The position numbers were made by a program, and so were the translations under genes. Shown in pieces: positions 11,747-36,630 of a stretch of 64,000 nt of DNA (positions are counted from its first letter, which is position 1; each line of letters starts with the position of its first letter). The notes under the pieces were generated by a model that had not been told where the DNA came from, made no database searches, and saw only the letters and a list, made by a program, of their open reading frames with translations. The DNA is from Candidatus Parcubacteria bacterium. Its GTDB lineage: Bacteria > Patescibacteriota > Minisyncoccia > UBA6257 > 2-01-FULL-56-20. The DNA lies in NCBI GenBank assembly GCA_027324805.1, contig DAHVRZ010000001.1, positions 66,945-130,944 on the forward strand, in the 5' to 3' direction.

Positions 11747-12457
11747 ATGCAATTTCTTTACCAACAGATCTTCTACAGGCCGATCTTCAATATCCTCGTC
11801 TTCTTTTATGAAACGGCGTCATTCCATGATCTTGGCATCGCGATCATCCTCACAACCGTCCTTATCCGCCTTATTCTCTACCCGTTCTTCCATAGCGGCG
11901 CGAAACAGCAGATGCTCATGCAGCGGATCCAGCCGAAAGTGAAGAAGATCCAAGAGATTCATAAGGGTGATATGCAAAAACAATCGGAGGAGCTCATGGC
12001 GCTTTATAAAGAACATGGCGTCAATCCATTCTCCACATTCCTTCTGCTTATCATCCAACTCCCTATTATGTTTGCCTTTTATTGGGTGGTGAGGGCGGGC
12101 ATCGGACCTTCACAATTCTCAAGTCTTTATTCATTCGTCCACGCTCCCTCAAGTGTTGGTACGATGTTTTTGGGTTTTATTAATCTTACGTCGCCGAGCT
12201 GGCTCGTAATCGTTTTTGCCGCCGCCGCCCAATTCATTCAAGCGCGCCTCGCGATATGGCGCGCGCCTGCAGGGAGTCAGCCATCGCAGGCGGAAAAGAT
12301 TCAACGCCAAATGATGTATATCACTCCACTTATCACCCTATTGGTCTTCTATGCTCTTCCATCATCAGTCGGACTTTATTGGTTTGTTTCATCGGCTTTT
12401 TCGGCCGTCCAGCAGTACGTTGTGAACCGACATCTCCGTATGAAATACGGGAATTAA
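11747..12457 (+). CDS. yidC: membrane protein insertase YidC (short Gram-positive-type)
   Basis: Multi-TM protein. Conserved YidC/Oxa1 core motifs. Follows rnpA. Confidence 0.85.
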   Translation: MQFLYQQIFYRPIFNILVFFYETASFHDLGIAIILTTVLIRLILYPFFHSGAKQQMLMQRIQPKVKKIQEIHKGDMQKQSEELMALYKEHGVNPFSTFLLLIIQLPIMFAFYWVVRAGIGPSQFSSLYSFVHAPSSVGTMFLGFINLTSPSWLVIVFAAAAQFIQARLAIWRAPAGSQPSQAEKIQRQMMYITPLITLLVFYALPSSVGLYWFVSSAFSAVQQYVVNRHLRMKYGN

Positions 12458-12514
12458 AAACTCCCCGCAGCCTTCCTCCCGGCTGCGCCGTGCTTGATTT
12501 TCCGATAAAAGTAT

Positions 12515-12967
12515 GTGATAATTATCGCCATGGAAAACTGGGAGGCTTTCATCACGCACATACTTGACCTGACCGGATTCAAAGACTATCGCGTTGAGGT
12601 GAAAGAAGATGAAAAACGCGGCCTCGTTTTCATCTATGAAAGTCAGCAGATGCTCAAGGAAAACCTCCCTGCAATCGTTGATGCAATGAACCATATTGCC
12701 CAGATGGTGGCGAAGAAGCATAAACAAGAACCCATCTTCATTGATATCAATAATTATCGCCACGACCGCGAAGCGATCATCGCTGAGCTGGCGCGCGCGG
12801 CGGCGAAGAAGGCCGCGGCTACAAAACAGAACGTGCCGCTTCCGGCGATGAACTCCTATGAGCGAAGGATCGTCCATACAGAACTCGCGATCCATCCCGA
12901 TGTCCGCACCGAGAGTATCGGCGAGGGCAAGGAACGGTACGTTGTGGTGATGCCAATCGCCGAATAA
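12515..12967 (+). CDS. jag: Jag/KhpB-like R3H RNA-binding protein
   Basis: C-terminal R3H motif NSYERRIVHTELAIHPDVRTESIGEGKERYVVV. Position after yidC. Confidence 0.8.
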   Translation: MIIIAMENWEAFITHILDLTGFKDYRVEVKEDEKRGLVFIYESQQMLKENLPAIVDAMNHIAQMVAKKHKQEPIFIDINNYRHDREAIIAELARAAAKKAAATKQNVPLPAMNSYERRIVHTELAIHPDVRTESIGEGKERYVVVMPIAE

Positions 12968-13003
12968 AAATATCCCACTTCACTGAAGTGGGATATTTTT
13001 TAT
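12966..13003. terminator. bidirectional rho-independent terminator
   Basis: AAAAATATCCCACTTCACTGAAGTGGGATATTTTTT, a perfect hairpin flanked by A and T tracts. Lies between convergent genes. Confidence 0.8.
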
Positions 13004-13031
13004 CTGCCCCCTTTTTTTCTTTAGGGCTTTT

Positions 13032-14270
13032 CTATTGCAACGTCAGCGCATAGAGTTTTTGATCGTATCGGTTCACGAAGAATAATATATTATTAAATAC
13101 TTTCATATCAGTTGCATCGATATGGGGGGGTGCATCGGCGCGAAGGATATTTATATCCCCCGAGGATGCGTTGATACTCTCGATCTGATCGGAGGTGAAC
13201 AACCCCATCATGTTATATGCGTCGGGGAGTTGTGCCGATGTAAATCCGGTTTGGTCCGTGGGCACGCCGCAGTACAGATATGCTTCCGATGAGGATGCTC
13301 CCGTCGCCGGCGAGAAAACACATTTTGAAGGGAGCGTCAGGAACGAAAGAGAGTGTATAACCGATCCCGACGTGTTGATCAGCTGAAGGGACGGCGATCC
13401 GTTTCCTTCCGCGAACAGAAGGCCGGCGGTGTCGGTGGCGGAGAGGCCTCCCCATGCCGCTTCGAGCCCCGGTATCTCATACTCCACCGACATAAGTCTT
13501 CCAGTCGATGTATCGAACATCCAGATGGAATTTTCCGCATTCGCGCTCGGTCTGTCCGAAAGCACGAATCGCGTCTTCCCTATCCACTGGAGGGAAAGAT
13601 CGGTCGCTGGCAGCGCAATCTCCACGGCGGGTGCCTTTTTGAGATTTGAGGCATCCAGAATACCGAGTGCCATTCCGCTGTTCGTTGTCTGTACGAGATA
13701 TGCGATCCGGTAATCATTATTAATGGGCGACCACTGCGGCGATTGCATGCCTTTCGGCGCCGCTATCCAAGCCTTTGAAGCAATATCGAATATTTCCGTC
13801 TGGGGCGCGGTCCGGTTGCCGGAATTGACCAATATCTTTTTCCCGTCATGTGAGAAACTTGCGGATATGATGTCGGAGATCGTCGTCGAGCTAAGGACGG
13901 TGCTTGAGCCATTCGAGATGGAGACCACTGTGCCGTCCGTCATGAGCGCAGTGACGGCATTTTGCGCATTTACAAAATAATCCAAGACCGGTCCGTCCGA
14001 CACGATGCCGAACGTCTGGGCTGGACTCCCCTGGCCCAAAACTATCGTCGCACTCGTACCGCTCGATGAAGAACTCACACTGTTTCCGCCGCCGGAGGTG
14101 CCGCTCCCATTCTGTCCGCCCGTGGAACCTTGCGTGCCGACCTGTGGCAAGGACCCCGTTCCTAATCCCAAGAACGAGGAGGAGGGATTCTTTTTGAGAT
14201 AGAATATGACACCTATCGCGATCGCGGCGATGACGATGATTATAAAAATGATATAGAGGTAGCGTTTCAT
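13032..14270 (-). CDS. membrane-anchored secreted beta-propeller (TolB/PD40-like) protein; last gene of T4SS-like operon
   Basis: N-terminal TM segment, Ser/Gly-rich linker, then repeated beta-rich segments (SFSHDGKKILV). Confidence 0.6.
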   Translation of the reverse strand: MKRYLYIIFIIIVIAAIAIGVIFYLKKNPSSSFLGLGTGSLPQVGTQGSTGGQNGSGTSGGGNSVSSSSSGTSATIVLGQGSPAQTFGIVSDGPVLDYFVNAQNAVTALMTDGTVVSISNGSSTVLSSTTISDIISASFSHDGKKILVNSGNRTAPQTEIFDIASKAWIAAPKGMQSPQWSPINNDYRIAYLVQTTNSGMALGILDASNLKKAPAVEIALPATDLSLQWIGKTRFVLSDRPSANAENSIWMFDTSTGRLMSVEYEIPGLEAAWGGLSATDTAGLLFAEGNGSPSLQLINTSGSVIHSLSFLTLPSKCVFSPATGASSSEAYLYCGVPTDQTGFTSAQLPDAYNMMGLFTSDQIESINASSGDINILRADAPPHIDATDMKVFNNILFFVNRYDQKLYALTLQ

Positions 14271-14289
14271 GGATATATTCCCGTGGGAG

Positions 14290-14694
14290 TTATTTTGTGC
14301 TCGATTGCGATGTCGGTTTTACTCCGTCAAGCGTTGGGAGATTCAGACTGACGAGGTTCGGATTGATGACATTCAGGATCATATACGCCCCTGCAAGGAG
14401 AAGGATGCCCATGATGGCAGCCTTGATCCATTCTTTCGCATCGCTCTGGCCCGAGGGGTTCCCCACCGAAGCCATATATTTCACTCCTCCATAGACGATG
14501 ATGCCGAAAGCAAGGATACCGGCGACGGACAATGCATATTGGTAGAAGTTTGCGACAAAGGCGGAGGGAGAAGAGGTGGCGGTCGTGGCGTACTGCCCGG
14601 GGATGGAAGCGGATATATCAATACCATAGGCGACATTCGCCAGGCCGGCGAGCAGTGCCGTGACCGACGCCGTCAATGCCAATTTTTGTTTCAT
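14290..14694 (-). CDS. VirB2/TrbC-like T4SS pilin-family protein (short paralogue)
   Basis: Signal peptide, hydrophobic helix, YGGVKYMASVGNPSGQSDAKEW loop, second hydrophobic helix. The mature N-terminal ~80 aa is identical to the 56686 gene. Confidence 0.65.
   Translation of the reverse strand: MKQKLALTASVTALLAGLANVAYGIDISASIPGQYATTATSSPSAFVANFYQYALSVAGILAFGIIVYGGVKYMASVGNPSGQSDAKEWIKAAIMGILLLAGAYMILNVINPNLVSLNLPTLDGVKPTSQSSTK
14385..14616. repeat. near-identical ~230-bp segment (copy A) shared with 56791-57022 in inverted orientation
   Basis: By-eye alignment of the reverse complement of 14400-14616 against 56791-57030 shows only two mismatches. Identity decays beyond ~14385. Confidence 0.85.
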
Positions 14695-15407
14695 AGCTGG
14701 CTGTTATAGGTCAGGGTGCTTTGCGTGTTGGCAACGACAGATCCCGACTGATTTGCTATCGCGAGGGAAACGGTGATGCCAGTGCCGGACGGCGTCCCCT
14801 GCGGCAGTGTGATTTCGGCGCTTTCAGGATTTTCCGCATTGGATCCCGTGGTGCCGTCCACCGCCCATGTATATGAGAGGTTCGAAGGTGCAAGCGGGAA
14901 GAAGTATGGCAGGGCGGTTACGGCGACAGGATTCGATGAAAAGTTTCCGCTCGGATAAGGTGCTTCGATCACCGCCACCGGGTTCACGAAAGGAAGCTGA
15001 ATTTCATGCACCAAATCCATCCCGTTATAATTCGGCAGTTCAACCTTCAGGGTTAGGGAGTTGGGTGGGGTTCCGAATGGAACGAAGGTCACTTTTGTAA
15101 CCCCTATCCCGCCTCCAATAAGAGTATCGTTCAGGTACCAATAGATCGTCTGCTGGCTCAGATCATCCACCTTTCCGCCGGATACCAATGTCATCTCCGC
15201 AAGCACCTGGGAGCCATAAGAAGGGAGCGCTTTCCCGGCATAGAAGGAAGGAACGTTGCTGTTGATCGCTTTCCAGGTCAGCATAAATTGCGGATCGGAG
15301 GCGGTTTGTGCGTGGGTGTTACTGGGAAAAGCAAGAAAAACAGAAGCCAATAAGCCTGCGATAATCCCGGTTAGCGCAACATACTTAAGGATGCGTCGAG
15401 GAAGCAT
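14691..15407 (-). CDS. secreted hypothetical protein
   Basis: Signal peptide/TM at the N-terminus. Beta-rich. The 4-nt overlap with the downstream gene suggests translational coupling. Confidence 0.55.
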   Translation of the reverse strand: MLPRRILKYVALTGIIAGLLASVFLAFPSNTHAQTASDPQFMLTWKAINSNVPSFYAGKALPSYGSQVLAEMTLVSGGKVDDLSQQTIYWYLNDTLIGGGIGVTKVTFVPFGTPPNSLTLKVELPNYNGMDLVHEIQLPFVNPVAVIEAPYPSGNFSSNPVAVTALPYFFPLAPSNLSYTWAVDGTTGSNAENPESAEITLPQGTPSGTGITVSLAIANQSGSVVANTQSTLTYNSQL

Positions 15408-15448
15408 ATCTTTGTTTTAGTATAACACATCGAACCTCAAGCGCGGCG

Positions 15449-16246
15449 CTATGCCGCCTCGGAAAACTCCTCCCAATCCGCGTCCTTGTTGTTTTTCTCT
15501 TCCTCCTTGTTCCGTTGTTGCTGGTCCAGGCGATCGAGGGTGTCGAACGCTTTTTTGGCTTTCTTTGTTGCTTCGCTTTCTTCGTTCTTTTGGGAACCCT
15601 TTTCTTCTTGGGGTTTCTCGGGTTTTTCTTCTCCGCCCAACTCCTCTTGAGGTTCGGTAAGTTCCTCTTGGAGATTCTCCATCGGATTCCTTTCTTCAGG
15701 AGGAGTAAATTCTTCTCCGGAACCCCCTTCGGCAGCTCCTTCCGCAGCGGAAGATCCTTCTCCGGCGGCCCCTCCGGCTTCCGTCGCCGCTTCGCCGGTC
15801 GCGGTCGCCCCTTCCGCAGCCGCCTCTCCGGCGGTCGCGGCGGCCCCTCCGGCTTCCGCTGCCGTTGCAGCAGCCTCAGCTGCTGCACCTGTCGCCGCGG
15901 CGCCCTCAAGCGTCTCGCCCGCGCCGGCGGTCGCGACCGCGATGCCCTGGATGATGACCTGTTCCGCCACGATTGCAAAAATCTTGTTGGAGAAGATCAG
16001 GGCGAGGAACATCCCAACCATAAGCAACGGAAGAGGGACGATGAAGGCGATGAGAAGGATAAGTTTTGCTATAAATCCTTTTGTTTTCGGCCAGAAGAAG
16101 CCGAGCACAAATATACCTGCGACATAGTGCGTAATAATCAAAAAGAACGATATGTCGCCCATGAATGCGGCGACGAATGCGAACACCACCCCAACATCGA
16201 AGATGTCTATTTTATTTCCTCCGCCCTCTTCGAGTTCTTCGTCCAT
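15449..16246 (-). CDS. polytopic membrane protein with Ala/Glu-rich low-complexity C-terminus
   Basis: 3-4 TM helices, then an AAEA/GE-rich acidic tail. Sits within the T4SS-like operon. Confidence 0.55.
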   Translation of the reverse strand: MDEELEEGGGNKIDIFDVGVVFAFVAAFMGDISFFLIITHYVAGIFVLGFFWPKTKGFIAKLILLIAFIVPLPLLMVGMFLALIFSNKIFAIVAEQVIIQGIAVATAGAGETLEGAAATGAAAEAAATAAEAGGAAATAGEAAAEGATATGEAATEAGGAAGEGSSAAEGAAEGGSGEEFTPPEERNPMENLQEELTEPQEELGGEEKPEKPQEEKGSQKNEESEATKKAKKAFDTLDRLDQQQRNKEEEKNNKDADWEEFSEAA

Positions 16247-16263
16247 CGCCGGGATCGATAAAT

Positions 16264-18039
16264 TTACAGTGCGCCTTTTTCCTCAAGCAACTGCTCTGGA
16301 TTCGTCGTTATGATCTGATCTTCGAAATACGATGGAACGATTTGGATCGCCACATGGCGTTTGCCGGCGAAGAAGATACCGGTGCCCACCTCTGCGCCAA
16401 GAAGGAAATTCTTTTCCGCATCGGTGAGATCGAATGCCTTTGCCACGATATCAATGGTTGCCGGCGCTTGTTTAAGGAGGAGCTGGATGGACGAGTTCGT
16501 TACGATCGGTCGTCCGTACGGCGAGCGTAGGAAATCCTCCACGTCCTGAGTGATCGTCGTAACGCCCAGATAATATTTGCGTGCACGCTTCACGAGGCCG
16601 AACAGGAACTGCGCGCTGTCGTCGTTCTTCATCATGATCCATGCTTCATCGATGAAGAGGAGGCGCTTGGCGAGTTTTGCGCGGATGATGTTCCAAATAA
16701 AGTTGAGCACGACGAACATCCCTATCGGGCGGAGCTCCTCTTCGAGGTCGCGAATGGAGAATACGATCAAGCGATTGTTCACGTCGATATTCGTCGCCTG
16801 ATTGAGGAACCCGGAGAAGCTACCTTTTGTGTATTTATAGAGCTTTTCCGCGAGTGAGATGCCGCCTTCCAAATTCCGCAATACCGTTTCCAGATCTCCA
16901 AGGAGAGGCGCTTCCTTGCCGGTGAAATCCTCGTCCGGCGTGATCTCGCGCGAAGCGTAGGTCTCGGTGATGGCGCGGTCGAGGATCGCGTCCTCTTCCG
17001 GTGTCACCGTGCCGACCATCAGCTTGATGAGCGATGCAAGCGTGACGATATGCGAGCGGAGAACGTCGGACGGCGTTTCGCCTTCCGGGATGATCGGTAT
17101 GTCGAAAGGATTGATATGCTCATGCGACGAGAGTGAGATATTGAACATGCTTCCGCCGAACGTCTTGGCCAATTTATCGTATTCGTTCTCCGGGTCGATC
17201 ACGAGCACCATATCGACGCCTTCCATGAGCGATCGGATGATCTCAAGCTTTGTCGTATAGGATTTGCCGGAGCCGGACTTGGCGAAGACCACTTGGTTGG
17301 CATTTTCAAGAGAGAATCGGTCGAAGATGACGAGATTTTCATTGTCGAGATTGATACCGTACATGATGCCCTGGTTCGATGAAAGGTCTTCCGAGATAAA
17401 CGGGAAGAACGAGGAGATGGGCGACGTATTCATTGGGCTCCATACCTCGAGCTTGTCCTCCGCGAGCGGAAGGATGGAGGTGAGACCGTCGAGCTGCTGG
17501 AAGAGCGCCGGCTTTATATAGATGAGTTTTGCCTCCATCATTGTGACGAGCTTGCTCTCGAGCCGTGCGAGTTCGTCTTCCGTATCGGCGTAAATAGTGA
17601 TATAGACCCCGACGTTAAACATCTTCTCCTGCGATTGCTGGAGCGAGTCGCGCAGCGACTCGACGTCGTTGATCGCCGTTTCGAGCACTGGATTGCGCAC
17701 AAGCCCCTTTTCCTGCTCCTCGTTCATCTCCGATTCGAGCTGACCCGCTTTTTTGCGGAGGTTCTTCAGTGCAAGCCCCGTATCGATCGGATTCACGAAT
17801 ATTGAAATATCGAAAAGGTTCGGGAGGTTGATTACCGGCTCGAACCAGCCCGTCGAAAGATAGCGCGGATAGGTCAGGATAAAAAATGTTTTTGCGATCT
17901 TGTCCCCGATCTTAAGGAAATTCGGAGATACCTCCGCGCCTGCGGGGGCTATTATCTTCTTTACATCCTGCGCTTGTTGATTTTCTTGGGTATCCTCCGG
18001 CATAGTGGTCCGTTTATTTTTTCTGGAAGGACGAAACAT
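16264..18039 (-). CDS. VirB4/TrbE (CagE)-like type IV secretion ATPase
   Basis: Walker A VVFAKSGSGKSYT, Walker B RLLFIDEAWIMM. The N-terminal region resembles the CagE_TrbE_VirB domain (FFILTYPRYLSTGWF). Confidence 0.8.
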   Translation of the reverse strand: MFRPSRKNKRTTMPEDTQENQQAQDVKKIIAPAGAEVSPNFLKIGDKIAKTFFILTYPRYLSTGWFEPVINLPNLFDISIFVNPIDTGLALKNLRKKAGQLESEMNEEQEKGLVRNPVLETAINDVESLRDSLQQSQEKMFNVGVYITIYADTEDELARLESKLVTMMEAKLIYIKPALFQQLDGLTSILPLAEDKLEVWSPMNTSPISSFFPFISEDLSSNQGIMYGINLDNENLVIFDRFSLENANQVVFAKSGSGKSYTTKLEIIRSLMEGVDMVLVIDPENEYDKLAKTFGGSMFNISLSSHEHINPFDIPIIPEGETPSDVLRSHIVTLASLIKLMVGTVTPEEDAILDRAITETYASREITPDEDFTGKEAPLLGDLETVLRNLEGGISLAEKLYKYTKGSFSGFLNQATNIDVNNRLIVFSIRDLEEELRPIGMFVVLNFIWNIIRAKLAKRLLFIDEAWIMMKNDDSAQFLFGLVKRARKYYLGVTTITQDVEDFLRSPYGRPIVTNSSIQLLLKQAPATIDIVAKAFDLTDAEKNFLLGAEVGTGIFFAGKRHVAIQIVPSYFEDQIITTNPEQLLEEKGAL

Positions 18040-18718
18040 CCTTTCTCTCGATGGTTTGCGGATTGTAGAAATTATAAAGGAGTTCGACGAGCTGTTCGTC
18101 GTTCAATGGCTGCGCCTCGAGCCCCATGTTCTGGATCCCGCTCACTACCTGGGTGGTCCGCTGGCCAAGCTGTTCGGCATGTTCTGCGAATGCCTTCTCC
18201 TCTTCTTCCGACCTCTGCTCGGCTGGTGTATTGGTGCTTTTCACCTTCTTTTCTTTCTTTCCCCCGAAGAACGAGAAGGCACTCGATGCGGATTTTATGT
18301 TTCCGAGGCCGCCCGCGATGGGATAATACGAGATCACCATAAGGAACACTTTTTCCATAATGGCATTTTTCTGCACGAATCCTTTAATGAATTCCACGTA
18401 CTCGTCTATCTGATTACGGAGGATCGGCGATTGCTCTTCTTCCTTTCTTGCGACGAGATTCTGTACGTAATGGTCTATATTCACCTTCCGTGAATGAACG
18501 AGCACCTGGAGCGGAAAATCGATGCCGTTCAGGAAGGTCTGATATGCCTGGATGATGATGTTCTGTTCCGTATCCGATTTGAGCGAAAAATTGACACCCC
18601 CCACCATGACCACCTGGCGAAGACTGCCATCCTTCATAACCACCGTTCCTTGGCGTATTTCTTTGATATCGACAAGATCGAGGGAGTTCCCCGCATCCTG
18701 TTTCGGGGTTGTTGCCAT
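18014..18718 (-). CDS. hypothetical protein, possibly detached N-terminal segment of VirB4
   Basis: Overlaps the start of the ATPase gene by 26 nt in another frame. Combined length (234+591 aa) is about that of canonical VirB4. Confidence 0.5.
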   Translation of the reverse strand: MATTPKQDAGNSLDLVDIKEIRQGTVVMKDGSLRQVVMVGGVNFSLKSDTEQNIIIQAYQTFLNGIDFPLQVLVHSRKVNIDHYVQNLVARKEEEQSPILRNQIDEYVEFIKGFVQKNAIMEKVFLMVISYYPIAGGLGNIKSASSAFSFFGGKKEKKVKSTNTPAEQRSEEEEKAFAEHAEQLGQRTTQVVSGIQNMGLEAQPLNDEQLVELLYNFYNPQTIERKDVSSFQKK

Positions 18719-18768
18719 ATCAGTATTATCGCATGAATCGAAGCGCTTAGCGAGAACCGAAATCGGGT

Positions 18769-19284
18769 TCAGCGATAGTCCACGCGCCGCGCCGCCTGCC
18801 GGTCACCGCTCACCCGCTGAAAGATCTGATAGTGTTCATTCATGCGTTTTTCTATGAACTCGCGGTCGGATGTTTTACTTGCCGGCTTGGTTCCTGTCTG
18901 GAGGTTCTCCCAGCTCTTATGGAGCGCCATGCCCGCGGCGATCGCTTCGAGGTTGATGCCGGAGGGCGCAGTGGCCGTCTTATGCACCGGAGAGGCCGTA
19001 TGGGGCATTTCCGCCTTCCATACATACGCCTGAGGCTTCCAATAATAGTTCGTGGCGGCCCTCAGTATTTTAATAAGCGGCTGGCCATTTATTTTAATGA
19101 ATGCCAGAGAGCCAGCCGTTCCCATAACGATAACGAATACGATAACAAAAAGCCATGTTTGCACAAAGAAATAGAAAAGCGCCGCGACGAATCCCGCGAT
19201 ACCAATATAAAGGAATTGGCGGAGCGAGAATGGCCCCACCACTTTATCCTCTGTTTCGATGAATTGGGGCACTTGGAACTGCAT
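18769..19284 (-). CDS. VirB3/PrgI-like small membrane protein
   Basis: N-terminal MQFQVPQFIETEDKVVGPFSLRQFLYIGIAG followed by two TM helices. Position immediately upstream of the VirB4-like gene, as in Gram-positive T4SS. Confidence 0.6.
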   Translation of the reverse strand: MQFQVPQFIETEDKVVGPFSLRQFLYIGIAGFVAALFYFFVQTWLFVIVFVIVMGTAGSLAFIKINGQPLIKILRAATNYYWKPQAYVWKAEMPHTASPVHKTATAPSGINLEAIAAGMALHKSWENLQTGTKPASKTSDREFIEKRMNEHYQIFQRVSGDRQAARRVDYR

Positions 19285-19287
19285 GCC

Positions 19288-20412
19288 TTATTCGGTGAAG
19301 TTTTGAACGATAACCTTGGGTGTTGGGGGTTTGGGCGGAGAAGGTGGTGTCGGGGGTGATGGAGGGGGCGTCTGGGGCGGTCGGGGCGTCATGGGCGTCT
19401 GTCCCATGGCCGCGGCCGGTGGCTTCGGCGGCATCGGTGGCTGGGGCATCGCCGGGATTTTTGGCGATTGCAGTGTTGTGGTTATCTCCGTGACACTCCG
19501 ACCCCCTTCTTTCGCAATAGGGACCGAAGGGAGTGATGTAGCGAATCCGGAATAAGCTCCGGCGCGCCAGGACGCCGGGGGCGTTCCGGGGGTCGAAGGC
19601 GTCGGTGCGGGTTTCGCCTGTCCGAATTCTATCATGGCGGGTTTCGCTTTCGGCTGGATCCTCGCACCCTCAAGGTCCATTTGCGCCCCCATTTTCCTTT
19701 CAAGATGAAAATCGGCATTGCGGGCAGGCGCGGCGAAGATTTCACCGCGCTGGATCATCACAGGGGCCGGCGCAGGAGCCGGTGCGGGCGTCGGAGTAAC
19801 CGGACGTCCGGGGATGGGTACGCCACCGATCGTTCGCGGCACAAAAGATGCCGAGGGCGTCGGGACGGGGACCGGCGCCGATGGGAATGGAGCGGGTTTT
19901 TTTATCGCCGACGGGACAGGCGGAAGATCGGCCGACGACATACGCGACCAGCCTTTCGAAGAAAGGTTGGTCAAGGGTATCGGTGTGGAGCCTGAAGTTT
20001 GGGTGTTCGGCGTGGGAACCGGCACGGCGGATTTGGCCGATGCAATATCCTGTATTACTTTCGGGGCGCCCGTATTGCCGGAGGGTGTCGGCGCGGGTGC
20101 GGAGATCGAATTTATGGCCGATTGTAAGGGTTGGAATATTTTTTCATTAAGAGCACTCGCTATGCTTTTCGCAGTAGAAGCGTCCATTCCGGCACCCGAT
20201 ACAAGCTCTTCCGCAAGGTTCTCCTGCGGCAAAAATCCAAGGAGCACCCATCCCGTGCGGGACGCGACTATTTCTTGCGCATCTTCGGGGACTTTGAATT
20301 GCTCGTTTATCGCCGAGATTTTTTCGGCGTTGCTATCGGAAAAAACCGCATCCTGCAGTACTGGCGGGAGTAGGACGAAACGATCCCGAGCTTGTTGTTT
20401 AGTGACGGTCAT
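19288..20412 (-). CDS. proline-rich low-complexity protein
   Basis: PTP/PAP/PPKPP repeats throughout. No TM segment. Confidence 0.5.
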   Translation of the reverse strand: MTVTKQQARDRFVLLPPVLQDAVFSDSNAEKISAINEQFKVPEDAQEIVASRTGWVLLGFLPQENLAEELVSGAGMDASTAKSIASALNEKIFQPLQSAINSISAPAPTPSGNTGAPKVIQDIASAKSAVPVPTPNTQTSGSTPIPLTNLSSKGWSRMSSADLPPVPSAIKKPAPFPSAPVPVPTPSASFVPRTIGGVPIPGRPVTPTPAPAPAPAPVMIQRGEIFAAPARNADFHLERKMGAQMDLEGARIQPKAKPAMIEFGQAKPAPTPSTPGTPPASWRAGAYSGFATSLPSVPIAKEGGRSVTEITTTLQSPKIPAMPQPPMPPKPPAAAMGQTPMTPRPPQTPPPSPPTPPSPPKPPTPKVIVQNFTE

Positions 20413-20417
20413 GACTA

Positions 20418-22973
20418 TTAATCCTCGTCCTCATCTTTTTTATACTTCTTTGGACGAATACCGAACATTTCATTAAGATCCACCGCATCGCGGCCCGGAT
20501 TGTTCTTTATGTAACTGGCAAGGGTCTTATTGGAGCGTGCCAGTGACTGAATTTGTGCGAGGGTTTTTGCATCCATGCTTTGAGGCGCATCCTCGAAGTA
20601 TTTGAGGTTATTTTTTGTACCAAGTGATTTAAGAAGCTCTTTAGCGTTTTGCGGTGAAAGTCCCTCGGCCATTGCGGTTATGATCGATTGTTGCATATTC
20701 TTTACCGCGGCAGGATCGAACGTCAACGGCTTGTTTCTCTTGTCGCCGATCTTTATATCCTTATCAAATTTCGCGGAAGCTTTACTGAAGTCTTGGAACG
20801 AGTCTGCGACCAAGTCCGGATGGTCCTTGATCAACCTCTTTATTTTCCCGATATTTTCGTCGAACGTAAGCTTTGCCGTATCGTACTGGTCTTTCTCGAT
20901 ATTTGTTATGAAGGTATGGCCGGTCGGAGTGTTTTGAATTTCCCTAAGTGTCTTGATCTCGTCCTTTTCGGGATCAGTGAGTGCTCCTTTGCCTTCAAGT
21001 TTATTGAGTTCGTCGAGCCGATTTGAGTAGGCGTCAAACACTCCCTTCTCCGAGGGGCTAAGGGGTGTCCCACTCCCCCATTTTTCGTAAACATCTTTGA
21101 ATTCTTGCGCTTTTGCCTTATCGCCAAATTCCAATACAGTCTTTTCAGCATCTTTATTTTTCTCAGCCAGTTCGTGGATAGTAAGGCCAGACTGATCTTT
21201 GAGTTCCTCGTAAGATTTTTCTTGCTGCAAGTCCTTGAACTTACCCTCATTCTGCTTGAGGAAATCTTGGAAGTTCTGGCCATTCACGGTAAGTCCACCC
21301 AAACTACCGACGCCGGCGGCTTTCACGACGTCTTTACGAAGGTTTTCATCTTTGGAAAGTTTGTCGAGCACGGCCATCTGCTCTTCGTGACTCATAGCAC
21401 CGCGGCCCAACGTTCCGGATTTTTGCGCAAGCGCTCTCGCGAGTGCTGCAGGATCTTTCGCAAGATTTTCGGCATACTTTGCTTGTGCCGCAACCGTGTC
21501 GCCACGCCCCGCACGTTCAAGATTCCCCAACCCTACCCCTGTTGCAACCTGCAGGCGTTGAGGTATGAAGCGATACCCTCCCGATTGCAGTTTGTTCTTA
21601 ACGTCCTTAGGCACCATTCTCCCGGCAGCTTGCTTCGATTTTTTCCCTGCCCACGTTTTTACACCATTCCCTGCGCTTGTTATCGCGCCCGTTACGGCGC
21701 TTGCGCCTTTGATACCCATCGAATTAGCGGCGAAGAGCCCGCCAATGATAAGTCCCGCGAAAATGAGTTCCTGAAGTATGGCGGGAAGCAATTGGGATAA
21801 CGCGCCGGCAAAAAATCCGCTTAGTGCCGTGAATATTCCGCCGTTGTTGTACTGTTTTAGATCCAAACTGCCTACGCCCGTCGTTCCGTTCGATACCTGC
21901 ATAAGGAGCATCGAAAGATAGATGAAGAACAGCGCGATGGGAGCGAAGAATGACCACTGCAGGAACTTGCTCCACCATTTTTTCCAATGATTGCCGAAGA
22001 TCGGGAATACCCATGATGCCCATGCGAACGGCATGAGGATTGCGAGGATGGCTATGTAAATATATCGTATGAAAAGAAGCACAAGGAGCCCCCCGAGGAC
22101 AAGTACGATCAGGAGGAGGTTTGTCGCACCGAAGAGCACGCCCATGAGTGCGACAAGCTCCTTTCCATCATTTGCTCCAGTTGCGGCGAGCGCCCCACTT
22201 AGGCTGTTCAAGCCCTTACTCGAAAGTATATCGGTTTTATTATTGACGCTTCCGCCCGTCACAAATGAGAAGCTGTTCTGCGGCTGGAATGACCCAGCGA
22301 ATGTTGTCGCGAAATTATCCCAACTCTCGAAGCCGTTGAAGCTCTGACTGCATCCTCCGCCTGCCGGGTTGATGCAGTTCACGAAGTAGTGCGAGAACGA
22401 GTTCGACAGGCCGAAGATCGGCGCGGCGATCACAAGGCCGAAGTTGACGAGTACGGCGGCCACCACGAGCTTCCAAAGAAGCTTTTTAACGCCATAACTT
22501 TCGTTACGGATGATAGTCGCTATCGCGATCACGATGATGCCGAGTACGAAGGCGAGATTCGCAATGGAAAGCGCTATGGAAAAGCCGCTTTGTACGAATA
22601 CCGTTTGGAATATGCCATCGTTGATGTTGAGAATGACGCCGATAAGCCATGCTTCAAGCGCCACGATCACGCCCACCACGACCGCCATATCGTATATTGC
22701 AAGGAACGCGAGCGTGGTCACGAACCCTGACGTTACGTCGCCGAGCGCGCCGATGCCGGATGCGACCAAGCTTTTCGCCTTTTGGATAATGCCCGTGCCG
22801 CCGGATTGTGAGCCGCTACCGCCGGCGTTCCCAGACTGGCTGCCGCTTGTTTGGGTTTGTGCGTACACCGAGTGGGGAAGTACAGCGGCGACGGTGAATA
22901 GGACCGCGATGACGAGGCAAATGGAGGATACCACCCTCACCCATCCTTTTTTCCTGAAACCGTGAAGCGTCAT
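20418..22973 (-). CDS. VirB6/TrbL-like polytopic membrane protein with long C-terminal soluble domain
   Basis: Signal peptide, Gly/Ser-rich linker, ~8 TM helices, then a ~370-aa charged coiled-coil-like C-terminus. Confidence 0.6.
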   Translation of the reverse strand: MTLHGFRKKGWVRVVSSICLVIAVLFTVAAVLPHSVYAQTQTSGSQSGNAGGSGSQSGGTGIIQKAKSLVASGIGALGDVTSGFVTTLAFLAIYDMAVVVGVIVALEAWLIGVILNINDGIFQTVFVQSGFSIALSIANLAFVLGIIVIAIATIIRNESYGVKKLLWKLVVAAVLVNFGLVIAAPIFGLSNSFSHYFVNCINPAGGGCSQSFNGFESWDNFATTFAGSFQPQNSFSFVTGGSVNNKTDILSSKGLNSLSGALAATGANDGKELVALMGVLFGATNLLLIVLVLGGLLVLLFIRYIYIAILAILMPFAWASWVFPIFGNHWKKWWSKFLQWSFFAPIALFFIYLSMLLMQVSNGTTGVGSLDLKQYNNGGIFTALSGFFAGALSQLLPAILQELIFAGLIIGGLFAANSMGIKGASAVTGAITSAGNGVKTWAGKKSKQAAGRMVPKDVKNKLQSGGYRFIPQRLQVATGVGLGNLERAGRGDTVAAQAKYAENLAKDPAALARALAQKSGTLGRGAMSHEEQMAVLDKLSKDENLRKDVVKAAGVGSLGGLTVNGQNFQDFLKQNEGKFKDLQQEKSYEELKDQSGLTIHELAEKNKDAEKTVLEFGDKAKAQEFKDVYEKWGSGTPLSPSEKGVFDAYSNRLDELNKLEGKGALTDPEKDEIKTLREIQNTPTGHTFITNIEKDQYDTAKLTFDENIGKIKRLIKDHPDLVADSFQDFSKASAKFDKDIKIGDKRNKPLTFDPAAVKNMQQSIITAMAEGLSPQNAKELLKSLGTKNNLKYFEDAPQSMDAKTLAQIQSLARSNKTLASYIKNNPGRDAVDLNEMFGIRPKKYKKDEDED

Positions 22974-22975
22974 TG

Positions 22976-25216
22976 TTATTGCACGTCAACCTGGCAGGTT
23001 GCGGTGGTTTGGTCGGTGGATGCGGTGACAGTGACATAGTAGGTACCGGTTGCGGTATAGGTGGCGAAATATGAATCGCCGACACTCGGTGTACCGCTTG
23101 CGGCCTGCATCGATCCCGGCGCGGACCAGGTGTAGGTTGGCGTACCATCGCTGTTCGTTCCTGACGGGCAGCTGTTGTTCGCCGAGCAGGTTGTATCGAT
23201 CGCGCCTCCTGCCGCTGAGAAGCTTGCGATCGCCTGACTCGTAGATGCGTTGAAAATAGTCGATTGCTGTGCCGGGAGGCATTGGATGACAGTGGACGAG
23301 GTCGGCTGGGAAAGGGAAAGACTCGAAGATGATATACTACTCAGCCCATAAGCCCCGGACGGGACCGTCGAATTGTTGCCGTTCGTTATGTTGCTCAGTT
23401 CCTGCGTGGAAAGGTTTATCGCATTAGTGGCGAGCGTATTAAGGATGGAGCTGAGGAGCGCCTCCAGAATCCCTGTGATATTCTTCGCATTCGTGATATT
23501 GTCCAATCCGCCCTTGAGTACCGAGGTGAACGATTCCTTGGTGACATCGCTCGGGGATTTTATCTGCGGACTCGAACCGTCGGCGCATTTGCCGAGATTG
23601 GGGTTTGCGATCGCCTGTTCGGGGATCAGGTCGGGGCCCATATTACATGTCGGCGGGTTGGTGCTCGTGTCGAGTGTTCCCCCGTCGGGGCATGTGTATC
23701 CGACGCCATATGGGTTGCTATGGTCGCTACATGTGGCGACGCCCTTCCACCCGGTCGATGTATTCTGCGTGGTCTTCGCCTGTTGGCTGTTACTTCCCGC
23801 GATAAGCGCGGCATCGCGCGTCTGAATGGCGAGTGCCCACACGTTGCCGCCTGGCTGGAAGAGGGAGAGATAGTCGTTGAAGTTATTGAAGTTGTTGTAA
23901 AAATTCTGGAGATTATTACCGAGCTGTCCGTTGAATTCGGATTGGCAGATGTCGGCATTCGCCACGGACGGAGTCGAAAGCAGAGCCTGTACGAATGGGG
24001 CCTGATATGAAGGTACACATTTCATATATGTGCCTATTTCGGTTACCGCGGCGCTTGTGAAAGAGTTGACCATTTCCGAACCGAAGTCGGTGATGAACTG
24101 CGGCGCACCCGCGCCCTGGATCGCGGTGAGTACTTTTTGCTGGATGAGGTTGGTGAGCACGTTGATGAGAATCTGGAGGGCTATATCCTCGACATATTTT
24201 TCGATGGTTTTTCCGAGTTGGGCGGTCGTATTGAATTCCACGACAGGGTCGGTAACTGCGAGTTGTGCGTGCGCGACCGGTATCCCTACGAAATTATTTA
24301 TAAAGGCGAATACTCCCTGGTTATGGTTCGGAACGGGAAGCAATGATGTTTGGAAGGGATATTTTGCGGTCATCTTGCTCCATTCGCTTTCGAAATTGCC
24401 GACCGCGAGATCATACTTCGATTGTTCGTTCTGGAAGATGATAGATGCTTTCAAGGGATCATTTTGTGCGTTTCCAAGAAGCGCCACCATGTTTTTCTCG
24501 TACACCAGGAGCTTAATGAGGCTTTCTTGTGCGTTCATCAAGGAAGCGGGCGTGGGGATCGCTGCGGCTGTTTGCAGCATCTCTTGAATCTGCGCTTCGA
24601 CCGCTGCCGCGGAACTCGGATCTTCCTGGCCGAGAACCCCTCCTATGCTGCTGTTTGCAATGTATTTTTGATAGATGGCATTGAACGACGATTCATAATT
24701 ATTGATGTTTGCAGGAGTATCGCTTGTAGTAACGATTTTTACCTGCGCCACTTGCGCGTCCCAATTGGGTGCTTGGAAATTTTGGAATACAGGATCTGCG
24801 GCGAGCGACTGGGCGATCGCTTGGGTGTTCGGCGAATTGAATATAGTGCCGCCGCTACTGTCGGTGATGGCGCCCTGGGGGTTCGCTGCCGTAAAGCCGT
24901 TAATGAACGATTCCGCGAAGGTGTTGGTAAGGTTGGTGGGATCGTTCGCGGCGACGATGGTTGCCGATGGAACATTCATTTCGCTGAGAATCTCAGCTGC
25001 GTTCCCTTGGAGCGAACCGGTATCTACGAATGCATTGTTGCCGAACACCGGGACCGTTCCCGTTGCGTCGCCTCCTATCCCCGTGATCGTCGGGCCTTCC
25101 GCCACTGACGGAGCGCCCGTCGGATTGGCTCCGACATACGCAAGGATCAGTCCGGAAAAGACCGCTGCGACCGCGAGAACCAGAAATCCGGAGATCAACT
25201 TCTTGACATCGATCAT
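22976..25216 (-). CDS. large secreted surface protein (first gene of operon), Cys-containing C-terminal beta domain
   Basis: N-terminal TM/signal. 746 aa, Asn/Gln/Thr-rich. The C-terminus YTWSAPGS...TYYVTVTAS looks Ig/PKD-like. Confidence 0.55.
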   Translation of the reverse strand: MIDVKKLISGFLVLAVAAVFSGLILAYVGANPTGAPSVAEGPTITGIGGDATGTVPVFGNNAFVDTGSLQGNAAEILSEMNVPSATIVAANDPTNLTNTFAESFINGFTAANPQGAITDSSGGTIFNSPNTQAIAQSLAADPVFQNFQAPNWDAQVAQVKIVTTSDTPANINNYESSFNAIYQKYIANSSIGGVLGQEDPSSAAAVEAQIQEMLQTAAAIPTPASLMNAQESLIKLLVYEKNMVALLGNAQNDPLKASIIFQNEQSKYDLAVGNFESEWSKMTAKYPFQTSLLPVPNHNQGVFAFINNFVGIPVAHAQLAVTDPVVEFNTTAQLGKTIEKYVEDIALQILINVLTNLIQQKVLTAIQGAGAPQFITDFGSEMVNSFTSAAVTEIGTYMKCVPSYQAPFVQALLSTPSVANADICQSEFNGQLGNNLQNFYNNFNNFNDYLSLFQPGGNVWALAIQTRDAALIAGSNSQQAKTTQNTSTGWKGVATCSDHSNPYGVGYTCPDGGTLDTSTNPPTCNMGPDLIPEQAIANPNLGKCADGSSPQIKSPSDVTKESFTSVLKGGLDNITNAKNITGILEALLSSILNTLATNAINLSTQELSNITNGNNSTVPSGAYGLSSISSSSLSLSQPTSSTVIQCLPAQQSTIFNASTSQAIASFSAAGGAIDTTCSANNSCPSGTNSDGTPTYTWSAPGSMQAASGTPSVGDSYFATYTATGTYYVTVTASTDQTTATCQVDVQ

Positions 25217-25291
25217 TTACACTCATTATAACCCTACATCGCCACGATTTACCATGCCGATTTATCCCCACGTCCGCGCGTTTGATCGCAA

Positions 25292-26121: not shown

Positions 26122-28095
26122 CTATTCGAATTCAACGACATTTTCCTCCCATACCGTATCATCGTCGTTGTAGAGATTATTCCCCTCATTTCCCTTGCGT
26201 TCGCTGTTTGCATCATGCATTCCATCTTCGGCCGTGAATGAAACGCAATCTTCGGGGATCTCTCCGATGAAGCGCGATGGGATTCCGTAGAAGCTGATAA
26301 AAAGTTTTTTTCGTGCGCGTGTCATTGCCACATACATAAGGCGGCGCTCCTCTTCGAGCGATGCTTCGTTTTCAATGGAACGGCCGTGCGGCAGGAAACC
26401 TTCCGCTACGCCGGCGATGAATACATTATTGAATTCAAGCCCTTTCGCGAGGTGAATTGTCATGAGACTTATTTCGGTCGCGTTCTTTTCCCCTCCGGAA
26501 CGCCCATTTTTATTGCCTATTTCATCTGCGGCCTCAAGAAGGCTTAGGCGTTCAAGCAATTCTTGTAGATCCGTGAACTCCGATGCAAATGCGATGAGCT
26601 CGGTTATGTTTTCCTCGCGTTCATCGGCATTTACGAAGTTCGCTTCGAGATAATCGAAATAGTGGAAGGAATCAAGAAATATTTTGAGCGCTTCGAGTGG
26701 CGTGAGTGCCTCGGCGGCATTGTCCATTTTTGGGATGTTAAGCACTCCCGCGAATTCCGCAAAGCGGCGCTTGGTAAGCGCTTTTTCCAGTCGTCCCTTC
26801 GCCACTTCGTCGCGTTGGTTTGCTATGTAACGCAAAGCAGCTACTGCATCTTTAACTTCCTTCCTTTCGTAGAATTTCAATCCTCCGAAAATGCGATAGG
26901 GAATGTTATAGCGGATGAGCGCTTGTTCGATGGCACGCGATTGAGCGTTCGTACGGTAGAGAATCCCGATTTCGGCGTCGTGGTCATCGGCTCGTATTTT
27001 TTTGATCCGTTCCGCAATCCATTCCGCCTCGTCGTTTTCTCCCCATGCCTCAAAGAGTGTTATGGGTTCGCCATCGGCGTTCTCCGTCCAAAGCGTTTTC
27101 GGCGTGCGCAATCGATTGTTCTGTGCGACTGCCGCCGCTGCGCGTATTATCGTTCCGGTCGAACGATAGTTTTGTTCGAGGAAGTGCACCGAGGCTCCCT
27201 TCCAATCCTTGTCGAAATTAAGAAATGTTTTTATATCCGCATAACGCCAGCTATAGATGGTCTGTTCATCGTCCCCCACTACGCTCAGGTTTCTATGCCC
27301 GCCGGCGAGGAGCGAGACGAGCTCATATTGTTGCGGATTAATGTCTTGATATTCGTCTACAAGAATCGCCTCGAACATATTTTGGTATTTCGCGAGGACC
27401 TCCGGATTTTTTTTGAAAAGTGAGACCGGTTTTTCAATGAGGTCATCGAAATCGAATGCATTATTACGCCGCAACATCTCTTCGTACTTTTCATATACTC
27501 TAATGGTTCGTTCTTTTTTCCCCGGATCTGATGCGAATGCACGGTCTTTCTCGGCCGCTGCCTCCATCCCAAGATTCTTTATCTCGGATATTTTTCCAGC
27601 AAAATATGCCGGTGTCTCTTGTTTTGCCTTTTGGGCCTTTGTTGCGGGGAATATGTCATCGTCCTTCTTTTTGGGCGGGATGACCTCTTTTACCGCTTTT
27701 TTAATAAGGTCGAACGAGTCGTGAGAGTCGAATATCGCAAAATTTGGGTCCCGCCCGAAGACTCGACATTCTTTTCTGAGGATCCTCGACCCCAACGAGT
27801 GAAACGTTCCAAGGAATGGCCCAATTCTTCCTACGCGGCGGGCCATCTCTTTTGCGGCTTTGTTTGTGAAAGTGATTGCGCAGATTCGCTCGGATGCTAT
27901 CCCCTCCTCTATTAGATGAATAATACGGTTTGTAAGCGTTTTCGTTTTCCCCGTGCCCGCTCCGGCTACTATTAAAAGAGGACCATGGGCTGCATATGCG
28001 GCAGCCTTTTGGGCCGAATTTAATGGCTCTTTAAGAGATATATTATTGTGATGGGCGTTTTCTTTGTTGTCTGGAGGTTGTATCGATTTCGGCAT
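26122..28095 (-). CDS. pcrA: ATP-dependent DNA helicase PcrA/UvrD family
   Basis: Motif I LIVAGAGTGKTKTLTNRI, motif II VDEYQD, plus the remaining UvrD/Rep motifs. Confidence 0.9.
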   Translation of the reverse strand: MPKSIQPPDNKENAHHNNISLKEPLNSAQKAAAYAAHGPLLIVAGAGTGKTKTLTNRIIHLIEEGIASERICAITFTNKAAKEMARRVGRIGPFLGTFHSLGSRILRKECRVFGRDPNFAIFDSHDSFDLIKKAVKEVIPPKKKDDDIFPATKAQKAKQETPAYFAGKISEIKNLGMEAAAEKDRAFASDPGKKERTIRVYEKYEEMLRRNNAFDFDDLIEKPVSLFKKNPEVLAKYQNMFEAILVDEYQDINPQQYELVSLLAGGHRNLSVVGDDEQTIYSWRYADIKTFLNFDKDWKGASVHFLEQNYRSTGTIIRAAAAVAQNNRLRTPKTLWTENADGEPITLFEAWGENDEAEWIAERIKKIRADDHDAEIGILYRTNAQSRAIEQALIRYNIPYRIFGGLKFYERKEVKDAVAALRYIANQRDEVAKGRLEKALTKRRFAEFAGVLNIPKMDNAAEALTPLEALKIFLDSFHYFDYLEANFVNADEREENITELIAFASEFTDLQELLERLSLLEAADEIGNKNGRSGGEKNATEISLMTIHLAKGLEFNNVFIAGVAEGFLPHGRSIENEASLEEERRLMYVAMTRARKKLFISFYGIPSRFIGEIPEDCVSFTAEDGMHDANSERKGNEGNNLYNDDDTVWEENVVEFE

Positions 28096-36629: not shown

Positions 36630-36630
36630 C

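Follow-up and report, generated by a model that had tools for sequence, protein, structure and literature searches.

What kind of apparatus is encoded by a run of ten genes beside the probable replication origin of a Candidatus Parcubacteria bacterium, is it mobile, and what might it do for the cell? The genes lie on the minus strand at 13032-25216 of a 64,000-nucleotide (nt) stretch of contig DAHVRZ010000001.1 (assembly GCA_027324805.1), which we call the window. A preliminary description of this DNA took them for a divergent type IV secretion system (T4SS)-like apparatus of the kind known from the Candidate Phyla Radiation (CPR). That interpretation is correct, as the locus matches the published T4SS of the Patescibacteria clade and the organism does belong to the CPR (Paceibacterota or Minisyncoccia in the sources). 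With a probability of roughly 0.85, we consider the locus to be the chromosomal, origin-proximal Patescibacteria T4SS of Paceibacteria, descended from MPF_FATA machinery; this estimate is for what the locus is and how it is built, and does not extend to the direction of transfer. The system was already described in 2023-2025 (PMC12102498, PMC10633639, PMC12857230), and what we report is a rediscovery and no new kind of system. The open reading frames (ORFs) of the cluster, with sizes in amino acids (aa) and the basis of each assignment, and the hairpin that follows them are listed here in the order of transcription.

22976-25216, minus strand: 746-aa envelope protein, first gene of the cluster (ORF, transmembrane (TM) segment, PKD domain)
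20418-22973, minus strand: 851-aa extended VirB6-like polytopic protein (predicted fold)
19288-20412, minus strand: 374-aa proline-rich protein, 18.7% Pro (ORF, synteny)
18769-19284, minus strand: 171-aa PrgI/VirB3-like protein with two TM segments (Pfam PrgI)
18014-18718, minus strand: 234-aa TrsD-like protein (NCBIfam TrsD/TraD, N-terminus of VirB4 profile)
16264-18039, minus strand: VirB4 ATPase, MPF_FATA/CD1110-like, 591 aa, or 579 aa from M13 (NF045971)
15449-16246, minus strand: 265-aa membrane protein (ORF, hydrophobic segments)
14691-15407, minus strand: 238-aa exported protein (ORF, hydrophobic segment, synteny)
14290-14694, minus strand: 134-aa VirB2-like T4SS pilin (Pfam T4SS_pilin)
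13032-14270, minus strand: 412-aa membrane-anchored PD40 protein (ORF, TM helix, profile match to TolB)
12966-13000, minus strand: intrinsic-terminator-like hairpin, 16-bp stem followed by a U-run (sequence and folding)

All ten ORFs are co-directional and occupy exactly the span first described. Counted from the 746-aa gene, the distances between them are 2, 5, 3, 50, -26, 17, 41, -4 and 19 nt, which agrees with the gaps of at most 50 nt or short overlaps reported in the preliminary description. The 591-aa ATPase ORF exists as listed there, but gene callers and nearly all relatives start at the methionine in position 13 (M13), giving a protein of 579 aa (16264-18003). With this likely true start, the 26-nt overlap with the 234-aa gene turns into a 10-nt gap. 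The 579-aa form is 100% identical to a protein (P0001) on record from contigs of 140.6 kb (ENA) and 224 kb (NCBI/ENA).

The ATPase scored 409.7 bits against the model of VirB4-like conjugal transfer ATPases of the CD1110 family (NF045971, cutoff 325), aligned over profile positions 173-734 of 752. Other VirB4 models gave 302.9 bits (VirB4 of the Mycoplasma integrated conjugative element, ICE), 171 bits (F-type TraC), 107 bits (VirB4_CagE), 69 bits (Bacteroides TraG) and 33 bits (CedB), and this gradient, with CD1110 highest, points to an affinity to the Gram-positive MPF_FATA class. The sole relative among PDB sequences is the C-terminal domain of Thermoanaerobacter VirB4 (4ag5, 2.4e-40). Both nucleotide-binding motifs are intact, Walker A (AKSGSGKS) at residues 253-260 and Walker B (LLFIDE) at 460-465, as expected for the VirB4/TrbE-like ATPase that had been proposed. 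Clustering with FtsK/HerA, named in the preliminary description as the competing assignment, is ruled out: in Pfam the HerA/DUF87 match reaches 35 bits, compared with 92.5 bits (3e-26) for P-loop_TraG and the 409.7 bits for VirB4 CD1110. The search for VirB4 homologues gave more than 8000, of which the best 120 are 80-100% identical and 567-596 aa long; the organism-named entries among these 120 come from Paceibacterota, Minisyncoccia or Patescibacteria. Such near neighbours strongly suggest membership of the Patescibacteria VirB4 clade.

The 234-aa protein upstream of the ATPase belongs with it. It matches the TrsD/TraD family NF041427 (2.4e-8, NCBIfam), carries a precomputed match to the TraC-like PF26593, and aligns to VirB4 profiles in their N-terminal part only (CD1110 positions 12-116, Mbov_0397 positions 101-220). 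Since these are the N-terminal positions of the same VirB4 profile, the VirB4 N-terminal domain is made here as a separate polypeptide, as the possible detached N-segment noted earlier had implied. In 74 of 74 related loci, TrsD and VirB4 have an ORF each, and the relative frames vary, so the split is ancestral and no sequencing error; an origin by frameshift or pseudogenisation is ruled out on the same grounds.

Two further core components were recognised by Pfam. The 171-aa protein matches PrgI with 45.3 bits (1.3e-11, gathering score 27) and has a hydrophobic hairpin at residues 23-67; gene callers give it 167 aa (18769-19272), and PrgI is present in 53 of the 59 close loci described below. 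The 134-aa protein matches T4SS_pilin with 37.6 bits (2.3e-9, gathering score 26.6) and a Mycoplasma ICE pilin-like family at 1.4e-4, and consists of a signal peptide and two hydrophobic helices. Its orthologues were found in 49 of the 59 loci, with variable C-terminal tails. They range from 117 to 390 aa (among them those of L007, L006, L035, L039, L042, L046, L057 and L058) and keep the T4SS_pilin module, while the variable C-terminal, sometimes N-terminal, extensions belong to no recognised family.

Regarding VirB6, the evidence comes from predicted structure. The 851-aa protein has a TM domain at about residues 80-420 followed by a long hydrophilic, Lys/Glu-rich C-terminal half. It gave no Pfam or NCBIfam match even at E<=10, and a profile of 120 of its homologues searched against PDB sequences returned coiled-coil noise only. 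Some homologues fall just under threshold (TrbL_4 26.5 vs 27, TrbL 20 vs 25.9), and about a dozen have a precomputed PF19590 match. When we modelled the N-terminal 500 residues and searched 350,542 PDB chains with Foldseek, all seven top matches were R388 TrwI/VirB6, the first being TrwI in the R388 stalk complex. The fold searches thus support the reading of this protein as an extended VirB6-like component. The labels given to these proteins in the preliminary description (PrgI/VirB3-like with two TM segments, VirB2-like pilin, VirB6/TrbL-like) are therefore borne out, the first two by scores above the gathering score and the third by a predicted fold closest to R388 TrwI/VirB6.

We then asked whether the cluster is a resident of the chromosome. 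Its flanks are housekeeping genes around the origin, with dnaN, dnaA, rnpA, yidC and jag/R3H on one side and ksgA, uvrD/pcrA and comM/yifB on the other. The cumulative GC skew has its minimum at 10-14 kb, between dnaA and rnpA-yidC, which is the likely origin, and the GC content of the cluster is like that of its surroundings. If the origin is at 10-14 kb, the T4SS operon together with ksgA, uvrD and comM (13-30 kb, minus strand) lies on the lagging strand, head-on to replication; this placement bears on the idea of origin-proximal gene dosage in PMC12102498. The UvrD/PcrA-type helicase and the ComM/YifB Mg-chelatase-like ATPase (26122-30345, minus strand) stand directly upstream of ksgA and both act on DNA. 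Relatives with contigs long enough to show it keep uvrD linked to ksgA, and both the helicase and ComM/YifB are probably housekeeping proteins. A minus-strand ORF at 12389-12895 (168 aa), considered as a candidate for jag, is probably an antisense shadow of the plus-strand R3H/jag gene at 12530-12967 (PF01424), and its conservation in tblastn reflects that overlapping gene.

Relatives were scanned with one genome per species, giving 80 loci, in 59 of which VirB4 is at least 65% identical to that of the window. In these 59 loci, the order uvrD-ksgA-746-851-374-PrgI-TrsD-VirB4-(265)-238-pilin-412-jag-yidC-dnaA-dnaN is preserved as far as each contig extends, which answers the question of synteny across Patescibacteria raised in the preliminary description. 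Median identity to the window proteins is 82% for VirB4, 58% for TrsD, 50% for PrgI, 51% for the pilin, 41% for the 238-aa, 38% for the 412-aa, 33% for the 851-aa and 31% for the 746-aa protein; the comparison medians for DnaA and DnaN are 70% and 60%. In 37 of 37 loci VirB4 surpasses DnaA in identity, with some bias because the loci were picked via VirB4 peptides. Conservation this high is consistent, though indirectly, with a need for the system in host-dependent growth, a need shown only for S. epibionticum. In Nomurabacteria-like loci (VirB4 about 56% identical), PrgI-TrsD-VirB4 alone are recognisable, in the same ksgA...yidC-dnaA-dnaN setting. As the whole cluster recurs with the same flanks and order in about 45 species-level Paceibacteria genomes, it has been vertically inherited, and it is a core-genome feature of Paceibacteria, not a mobile element.

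Scans of the window with Pfam and NCBIfam took in every ORF of at least 400 aa except antisense shadows, and among these larger ORFs no relaxase, VirD4/TcpA coupling protein or VirB7, VirB9 or VirB10 was found. The only PF00437 ATPase of the window, at 2317-4005 (minus strand), is ruled out as VirB11: it scores 468 bits on both the GspE and the PilB model, below both equivalog cutoffs, compared with 39 bits for VirB11, and is of the GspE/PilB type, from type IV pilus or type II secretion machinery. Within the 64 kb, the absence of relaxase, VirD4, VirB11 and VirB7/9/10 noted before thus stands. With no relaxase or coupling protein nearby, the cluster does not appear to be a conjugation machine.

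These results bear directly on the possibility that the cluster is the transfer module of an ICE or of a degraded plasmid, serving the export of mobile DNA. Such an origin would explain why VirB4, PrgI and TrsD are homologous to proteins of pGO1, pCF10, CTn2 and the Mycoplasma ICE, and a tyrosine recombinase (62912-63862) does stand next to a tRNA-Leu gene. However, this recombinase is XerC/D-like (236 and 231 bits) and 38 kb away, the GC content does not deviate, the window holds neither relaxase nor type IV coupling protein (T4CP), and the position between ksgA and jag-yidC-rnpA-dnaA is the same in dozens of species-level genomes, as expected from vertical inheritance. Relaxases were also reported in only 103 of 3,035 genomes (PMC12102498). 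We reject the mobile-element explanation on synteny and leave it hardly any probability.

The remaining five products are accessory proteins of this lineage. By tblastn, the 746-, 374-, 265-, 238- and 412-aa proteins were detected in loci with a VirB4 at least 65% identical to that of the window and in no others, and the Nomurabacteria-like loci lack them. The preliminary description listed the 746-, 238- and 265-aa and the Pro-rich proteins as having no recognisable family; this holds for the 238-, 265- and 374-aa proteins but not for the 746-aa protein, which has a PKD domain, and all are conserved in the lineage. Its membrane and secreted labels are consistent with the hydrophobic segments that we see.

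The 746-aa protein consists of an N-terminal TM helix, a confidently helical domain (residues 85-290), a conserved central region with Cys and a C-terminal PKD/Ig domain. The PKD domain was found in 41 of 53 homologues, and PKD matches appeared also against PDB sequences. At E<=1e-30, a library of 1.84 billion proteins contains 299 representatives of the family, and the protein is syntenic in 36 loci. Its AlphaFold2 model has a low mean confidence (pLDDT 58.7) and Foldseek matches to Ig/PKD folds only. At residues ~300-334 lies a conserved motif, GI..AHAQ..V.DP, where 16 of about 105 homologues (11 of 53 and 5 of 53) have DUF4141 matches of 24-34 residues; in four individually scanned homologues the score was 23.7-29.5 bits, below the gathering score of 30. 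The window protein itself gave no DUF4141 match, and no VirB5 fold was among the Foldseek matches of its low-confidence model. DUF4141 proteins adjoin traJ (VirB6) in Bacteroides conjugative transposons, and the 746-aa protein, encoded directly before VirB6, may contain a VirB5/TraI-like module. It may also be an adhesin or a stalk component.

Proteins of 374, 265 and 238 aa have no Pfam or NCBIfam relative, apart from low-complexity matches of the 265-aa protein, and profile searches of their families against PDB sequences were uninformative; none of the three matched VirB8-like structures by sequence or profile. In the 374-aa protein, a conserved N-terminal domain (about 100 residues) is followed by a Pro-rich part; no TM segment or signal peptide was detected, and the protein is syntenic in 37 loci, mainly via the N-terminal part. 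In the 265-aa protein about three TM segments (residues 12-108) precede an acidic, Ala/Gly/Glu-rich low-complexity tail; tblastn detects it in 13 of the 59 loci, and an ORF fills the same position in those checked. The 238-aa protein is predicted to carry a signal or anchor at its N-terminus and to expose about 200 residues outside the cytoplasm. It was found in 54 of the 59 loci at 30-62% identity, always directly 5′ of the pilin gene, and in the window its stop overlaps the pilin start (ATGA).

The last gene of the operon encodes a 412-aa protein with an N-terminal TM helix, a Gly/Ser linker and a PD40-repeat domain with two conserved Cys, conserved in 44 of the 59 loci. A profile of 44 orthologues matches TolB chains at 1.3e-6, over one 35-residue PD40 repeat; Pfam gave weak propeller hints, and no TolB N-domain match was found. 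The PD40 domain is presumably a beta-propeller. The TolB-like beta-propeller proposed earlier is plausible, as a resemblance to TolB and not as membership of that family.

The system does not end with the operon. The extent of 13032-25216 given in the preliminary description is right for the operon itself, but a second T4SS-linked locus lies on the plus strand at about 56.2-59.6 kb, with five T4SS_pilin genes (30.4-36.1 bits, gathering score 26.6) and a gene for a 184-aa protein. Its genes, and the repeat that connects it with the operon, are as follows.

56161-56673, plus strand: distal gene 1, VirB2-like pilin (T4SS_pilin 33.7 bits)
56686-57594, plus strand: distal gene 2, pilin fused to a Cys-rich lysozyme-like (SLT_3) C-terminal domain (T4SS_pilin 32.6 bits)
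57605-58159, plus strand: distal gene 3, 184-aa protein with TM anchor, Ser/Thr/Gly linker and small domain (ORF)
58186-58584, plus strand: distal gene 4, VirB2-like pilin (T4SS_pilin 36.1 bits; TrbC/VirB2 0.0048; Mbov_0395 pilin-like 2.7e-6)
58662-59102, plus strand: distal gene 5, VirB2-like pilin (T4SS_pilin 34.1 bits)
59173-59568, plus strand: distal gene 6, VirB2-like pilin (T4SS_pilin 30.4 bits; 37-42% identical to genes 4 and 5)
14360-14616 and 56791-57047, no strand assigned: 257-bp inverted repeat, 96.9% identity (blastn)

Two of these ORFs had been listed with earlier starts. Gene 1 was listed from TTG 56002, where it overlaps the preceding solute-binding-protein gene, and ATG 56161 or 56179 is likelier; gene 5 was listed from GTG 58590, with ATG 58662 as the likely start. 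The SLT_3 match of gene 2 scored 23.7 bits (E 7e-5), below the gathering score of 27, and the protein had no sequence relative in the PDB. Judging from this match, the pilin-lysozyme fusion is a tentative candidate, and the only one, for a VirB1-type cell-wall hydrolase.

The arms of the inverted repeat lie in the operon pilin gene and in the pilin-lysozyme gene. At the protein level the pilin module of the fusion is 92% identical to the operon pilin, compared with 25-55% among the other pilins, and the near-identity over 257 bp points to a recent duplication or gene conversion of the module. Recombination between the arms could in principle invert the 42-kb segment between both pilin genes. 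In the complete 808-kb chromosome of one relative (L052), homologues of the pilin-lysozyme and of the 184-aa protein are encoded inside the T4SS operon, directly after virB4 (12619-14201), which ties the distal array to the T4SS. Arrays of 2-11 divergent pilin genes have been described for Patescibacteria T4SSs (PMC12102498). Between the array and the recombinase mentioned above we noticed three minus-strand ORFs without family (59565-61034, 61160-62002 and 62028-62741), at least two of them with hydrophobic stretches.

With six pilin genes at hand, whose sequence diversity resembles that seen in antigenic or host-range variation, and with a surface protein bearing Ig/PKD domains, the gene set might build only an adhesive pilus for attachment to the host, with no transport at all. 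We judge this quite improbable. A PilB/GspE-type ATPase for type IV pili is also encoded in this genome, and in Saccharibacteria type IV pili are the known organelle of adhesion and motility. Moreover, VirB4 has a median identity of 82%, above that of DnaA, and a VirB6 channel protein is retained, both of which suggest more than adhesion.

How such a machine would work can be sketched from established knowledge of T4SSs. PrgI/VirB3 would tether VirB4 hexamers to the membrane, and VirB6 would form a membrane platform or channel. Docked via VirB3 and VirB6, the VirB4 hexamers would power, by hydrolysing ATP, the extraction of pilin from the membrane and its polymerisation into a pilus or tube. 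The 746-, 374-, 265-, 238- and 412-aa proteins might build the wall-spanning and host-contacting parts, such that lineage-specific envelope proteins supply the roles played elsewhere by VirB1, VirB5, VirB8 and adhesins, and the pilin-lysozyme fusion might open the peptidoglycan. By analogy with Southlakia epibionticum, we take it that the machine mediates contact-dependent transfer of macromolecules with a host cell. As for the direction, we give somewhat less than even odds to the import of material from the host cytoplasm, for example nucleic acids; the export of effectors seems rather unlikely, and we would say the same of transfer both ways or of something else.

A bolder proposal is that the five accessory proteins and the pilin-lysozyme form a Paceibacteria-specific, envelope-spanning and host-piercing module that replaces VirB1, VirB5, VirB8 and adhesins, and makes of a former conjugation motor an essential feeding tube importing host nucleic acids. 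The 746-aa protein, its gene standing immediately ahead of that for VirB6 as in the order virB5-virB6, would then be its VirB5-like stalk or tip factor. We regard the proposal as a whole as doubtful.

Import could also take the form of a dedicated DNA-uptake (competence) machine, comparable to the ComB T4SS of H. pylori or archaeal Ced, which would supply a cell auxotrophic for nucleotides. Co-option of T4SSs for DNA import is known, and such a role has been suggested for Patescibacteria (PMC11665869, PMC12102498). ComM/YifB and the UvrD/PcrA helicase are encoded just upstream, and weak matches to CedB (3.2e-8) and CedD were obtained via the P-loop. However, the CedB match reaches 32.7 bits against a cutoff of 700, no ComB-type VirB7/9/10 was found, and uvrD and comM are housekeeping genes commonly met as neighbours. 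Competence in S. epibionticum depends on ComEC and can be separated from the essentiality of the T4SS, and a 2026 preprint (10.64898/2026.06.21.733656) indicates that RNA, not DNA, is the acquired polymer. A competence machine therefore seems improbable to us.

The opposite direction was considered as well, in which the apparatus injects proteins into the host bacterium like the T4SSs of pathogens or the bacteria-killing one of Xanthomonas. Delivery of effectors has been speculated for Saccharibacteria (PMC11665869, PMC10633639), protein-secreting T4SSs without T4CP exist (Ptl, Brucella VirB), and a pilus with PKD and PD40 surface proteins would suit contact with a host. On the other hand, we recognised neither candidate genes for effectors or immunity proteins nor a secretion signal in or beside the cluster, the window holds no T4CP that could recruit substrates, and the present data do not separate export from import. 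We consider an effector translocator unlikely.

Several points weigh against our identification of the locus as a Patescibacteria T4SS acting on a host. Half of the ten products have no assigned role, and neither a VirB8-like nor a clear VirB1-like component was identified among the products of the cluster and the distal array. The Foldseek E-values behind the VirB6 assignment are 0.015-0.17, and the window protein has no significant support for VirB6 at the sequence level. Our search covered 64 kb of a contig that is at least 140 kb long, and other parts of the genome could encode a coupling protein or relaxase; VirD4-like (T4CP) genes are usually far from virB4, in most genomes (PMC12102498). 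Essentiality was shown only in Saccharimonadia, a different class with different accessory genes, and direction and substrate of the transfer are pure inference.

Signals for transcription were also inspected. The terminator-like hairpin lies just past the stop codon of the last gene, in the convergent gap to the rnpA-yidC-jag operon. Its folding energy is -28.4 kcal/mol (z = -6.1), and none of 200 shuffles folded equally well. It was found by reading the gap by eye and then folding it; a scan with consensus promoters and terminators gave counts no better than in shuffled sequence and overlooked the hairpin at 12966-13000. The three largest gaps, 25217-25291, 18719-18768 and 15408-15448 (minus strand), precede the 746-aa, TrsD-like and 238-aa genes, and each contains one -10-like hexamer (TATAAT, GATAAT and TATACT, respectively) about 6-15 nt 5′ of the ATG. 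Reading by eye, we noted no Shine-Dalgarno motif in these gaps. The gaps may mark three sub-operons with leaderless or very short-leader mRNAs.

Elsewhere in the window, the tRNA-Leu gene (TAG) abuts the 316-aa XerC/XerD-like tyrosine recombinase on the opposite strand (62829-63862), and ARAGORN predicted a tRNA-Ile at 36558-36630 (plus strand) with the anticodon TAT, which is uncommon for bacteria.

The T4SS of Patescibacteria is near-universal in a huge and mostly uncultivated radiation, essential in the one species tested, and suspected to be the conduit by which these parasites obtain host macromolecules. The window offers a clean and complete Paceibacteria example under strong constraint, a ten-gene unit with its terminator, for structural and genetic work. 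Our additions are modest: support for VirB6 at the level of the fold where hidden Markov models miss it, a conserved set of accessory genes, the operon terminator, and the distal pilin array with its pilin-lysozyme fusion and the 97%-identical inverted repeat shared with the operon pilin. The five conserved accessory proteins are candidates for lineage-specific structural parts.

Among known systems, R388 Trw and Agrobacterium VirB (MPF_T) have in common with the window a VirB2-like pilin, VirB3, VirB4 and a protein of VirB6 fold. In contrast to them, the window has no homologues of VirB7/9/10, VirB11 or VirD4 and no confirmed VirB5, and its VirB4_CagE/TrbE scores are far below those of the Gram-positive models. 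The MPF_FATA systems (pGO1/pSK41 trs, pCF10 prg, C. difficile CTn2 CD1110 and the Mycoplasma ICE) share the CD1110-family VirB4, PrgI/VirB3, the separate TrsD-like N-terminal protein, as in pGO1, and the lack of an outer-membrane core. They differ in that the window has no relaxase or T4CP nearby and no recognisable VirB8-like protein (PrgL/TraM/TcpC) or PrgK/TraG-type hydrolase in the operon, whereas it has the VirB2-like pilins that they lack, and in that its cluster is a fixed part of the chromosome rather than of a mobile element.

Among epibionts, the T4SS of Southlakia epibionticum ML1 (SEML1_0006-0019) is likewise Gram-positive-like, without a recognisable relaxase or coupling protein in the cluster, and situated at the start of the chromosome. 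In this member of the class Saccharimonadia, transposon sequencing showed the T4SS and pilin genes to be essential for epibiotic growth, and coupling and relaxase proteins are lacking (Wang et al. 2023, PMC10633639). It encodes its six pilins within the cluster and has peptidase and lysozyme genes after virB4, whereas the window has one pilin in the operon and five 42 kb away. A 2024 perspective called the role of the Patescibacteria T4SS 'completely unknown' (PMC11665869). According to a 2025 FEMS review, these T4SSs stand alone among those of monoderms in probably building a pilus, with speculation about an uptake conduit (PMC12857230), and in one cultivated member of the Microgenomatia the 2026 preprint describes tubular structures, possibly T4SS pili, reaching into the host, and uptake of host RNA (10.64898/2026.06.21.733656).

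The closest counterpart is the Paceibacteria arrangement described by Quinonero-Coronel et al. 2025 (PMC12102498), who found a monophyletic Patescibacteria VirB4 clade nested in MPF_FATA, with TrsD as its most abundant companion, accompanied by PrgI/VirB3, VirB6 and VirB2-like pilins, and located the Paceibacteria T4SS next to dnaA, dnaN, rnpA and ksgA. The window agrees with it in VirB4, the separate TrsD, PrgI/VirB3, VirB6, the VirB2-like pilin and the extra pilin arrays, in having no relaxase or T4CP nearby and in its dnaA, dnaN, rnpA and ksgA neighbourhood, and nothing essential is different. That work leaves other conserved neighbours unannotated; here, five accessory genes are seen to be syntenic across the lineage.

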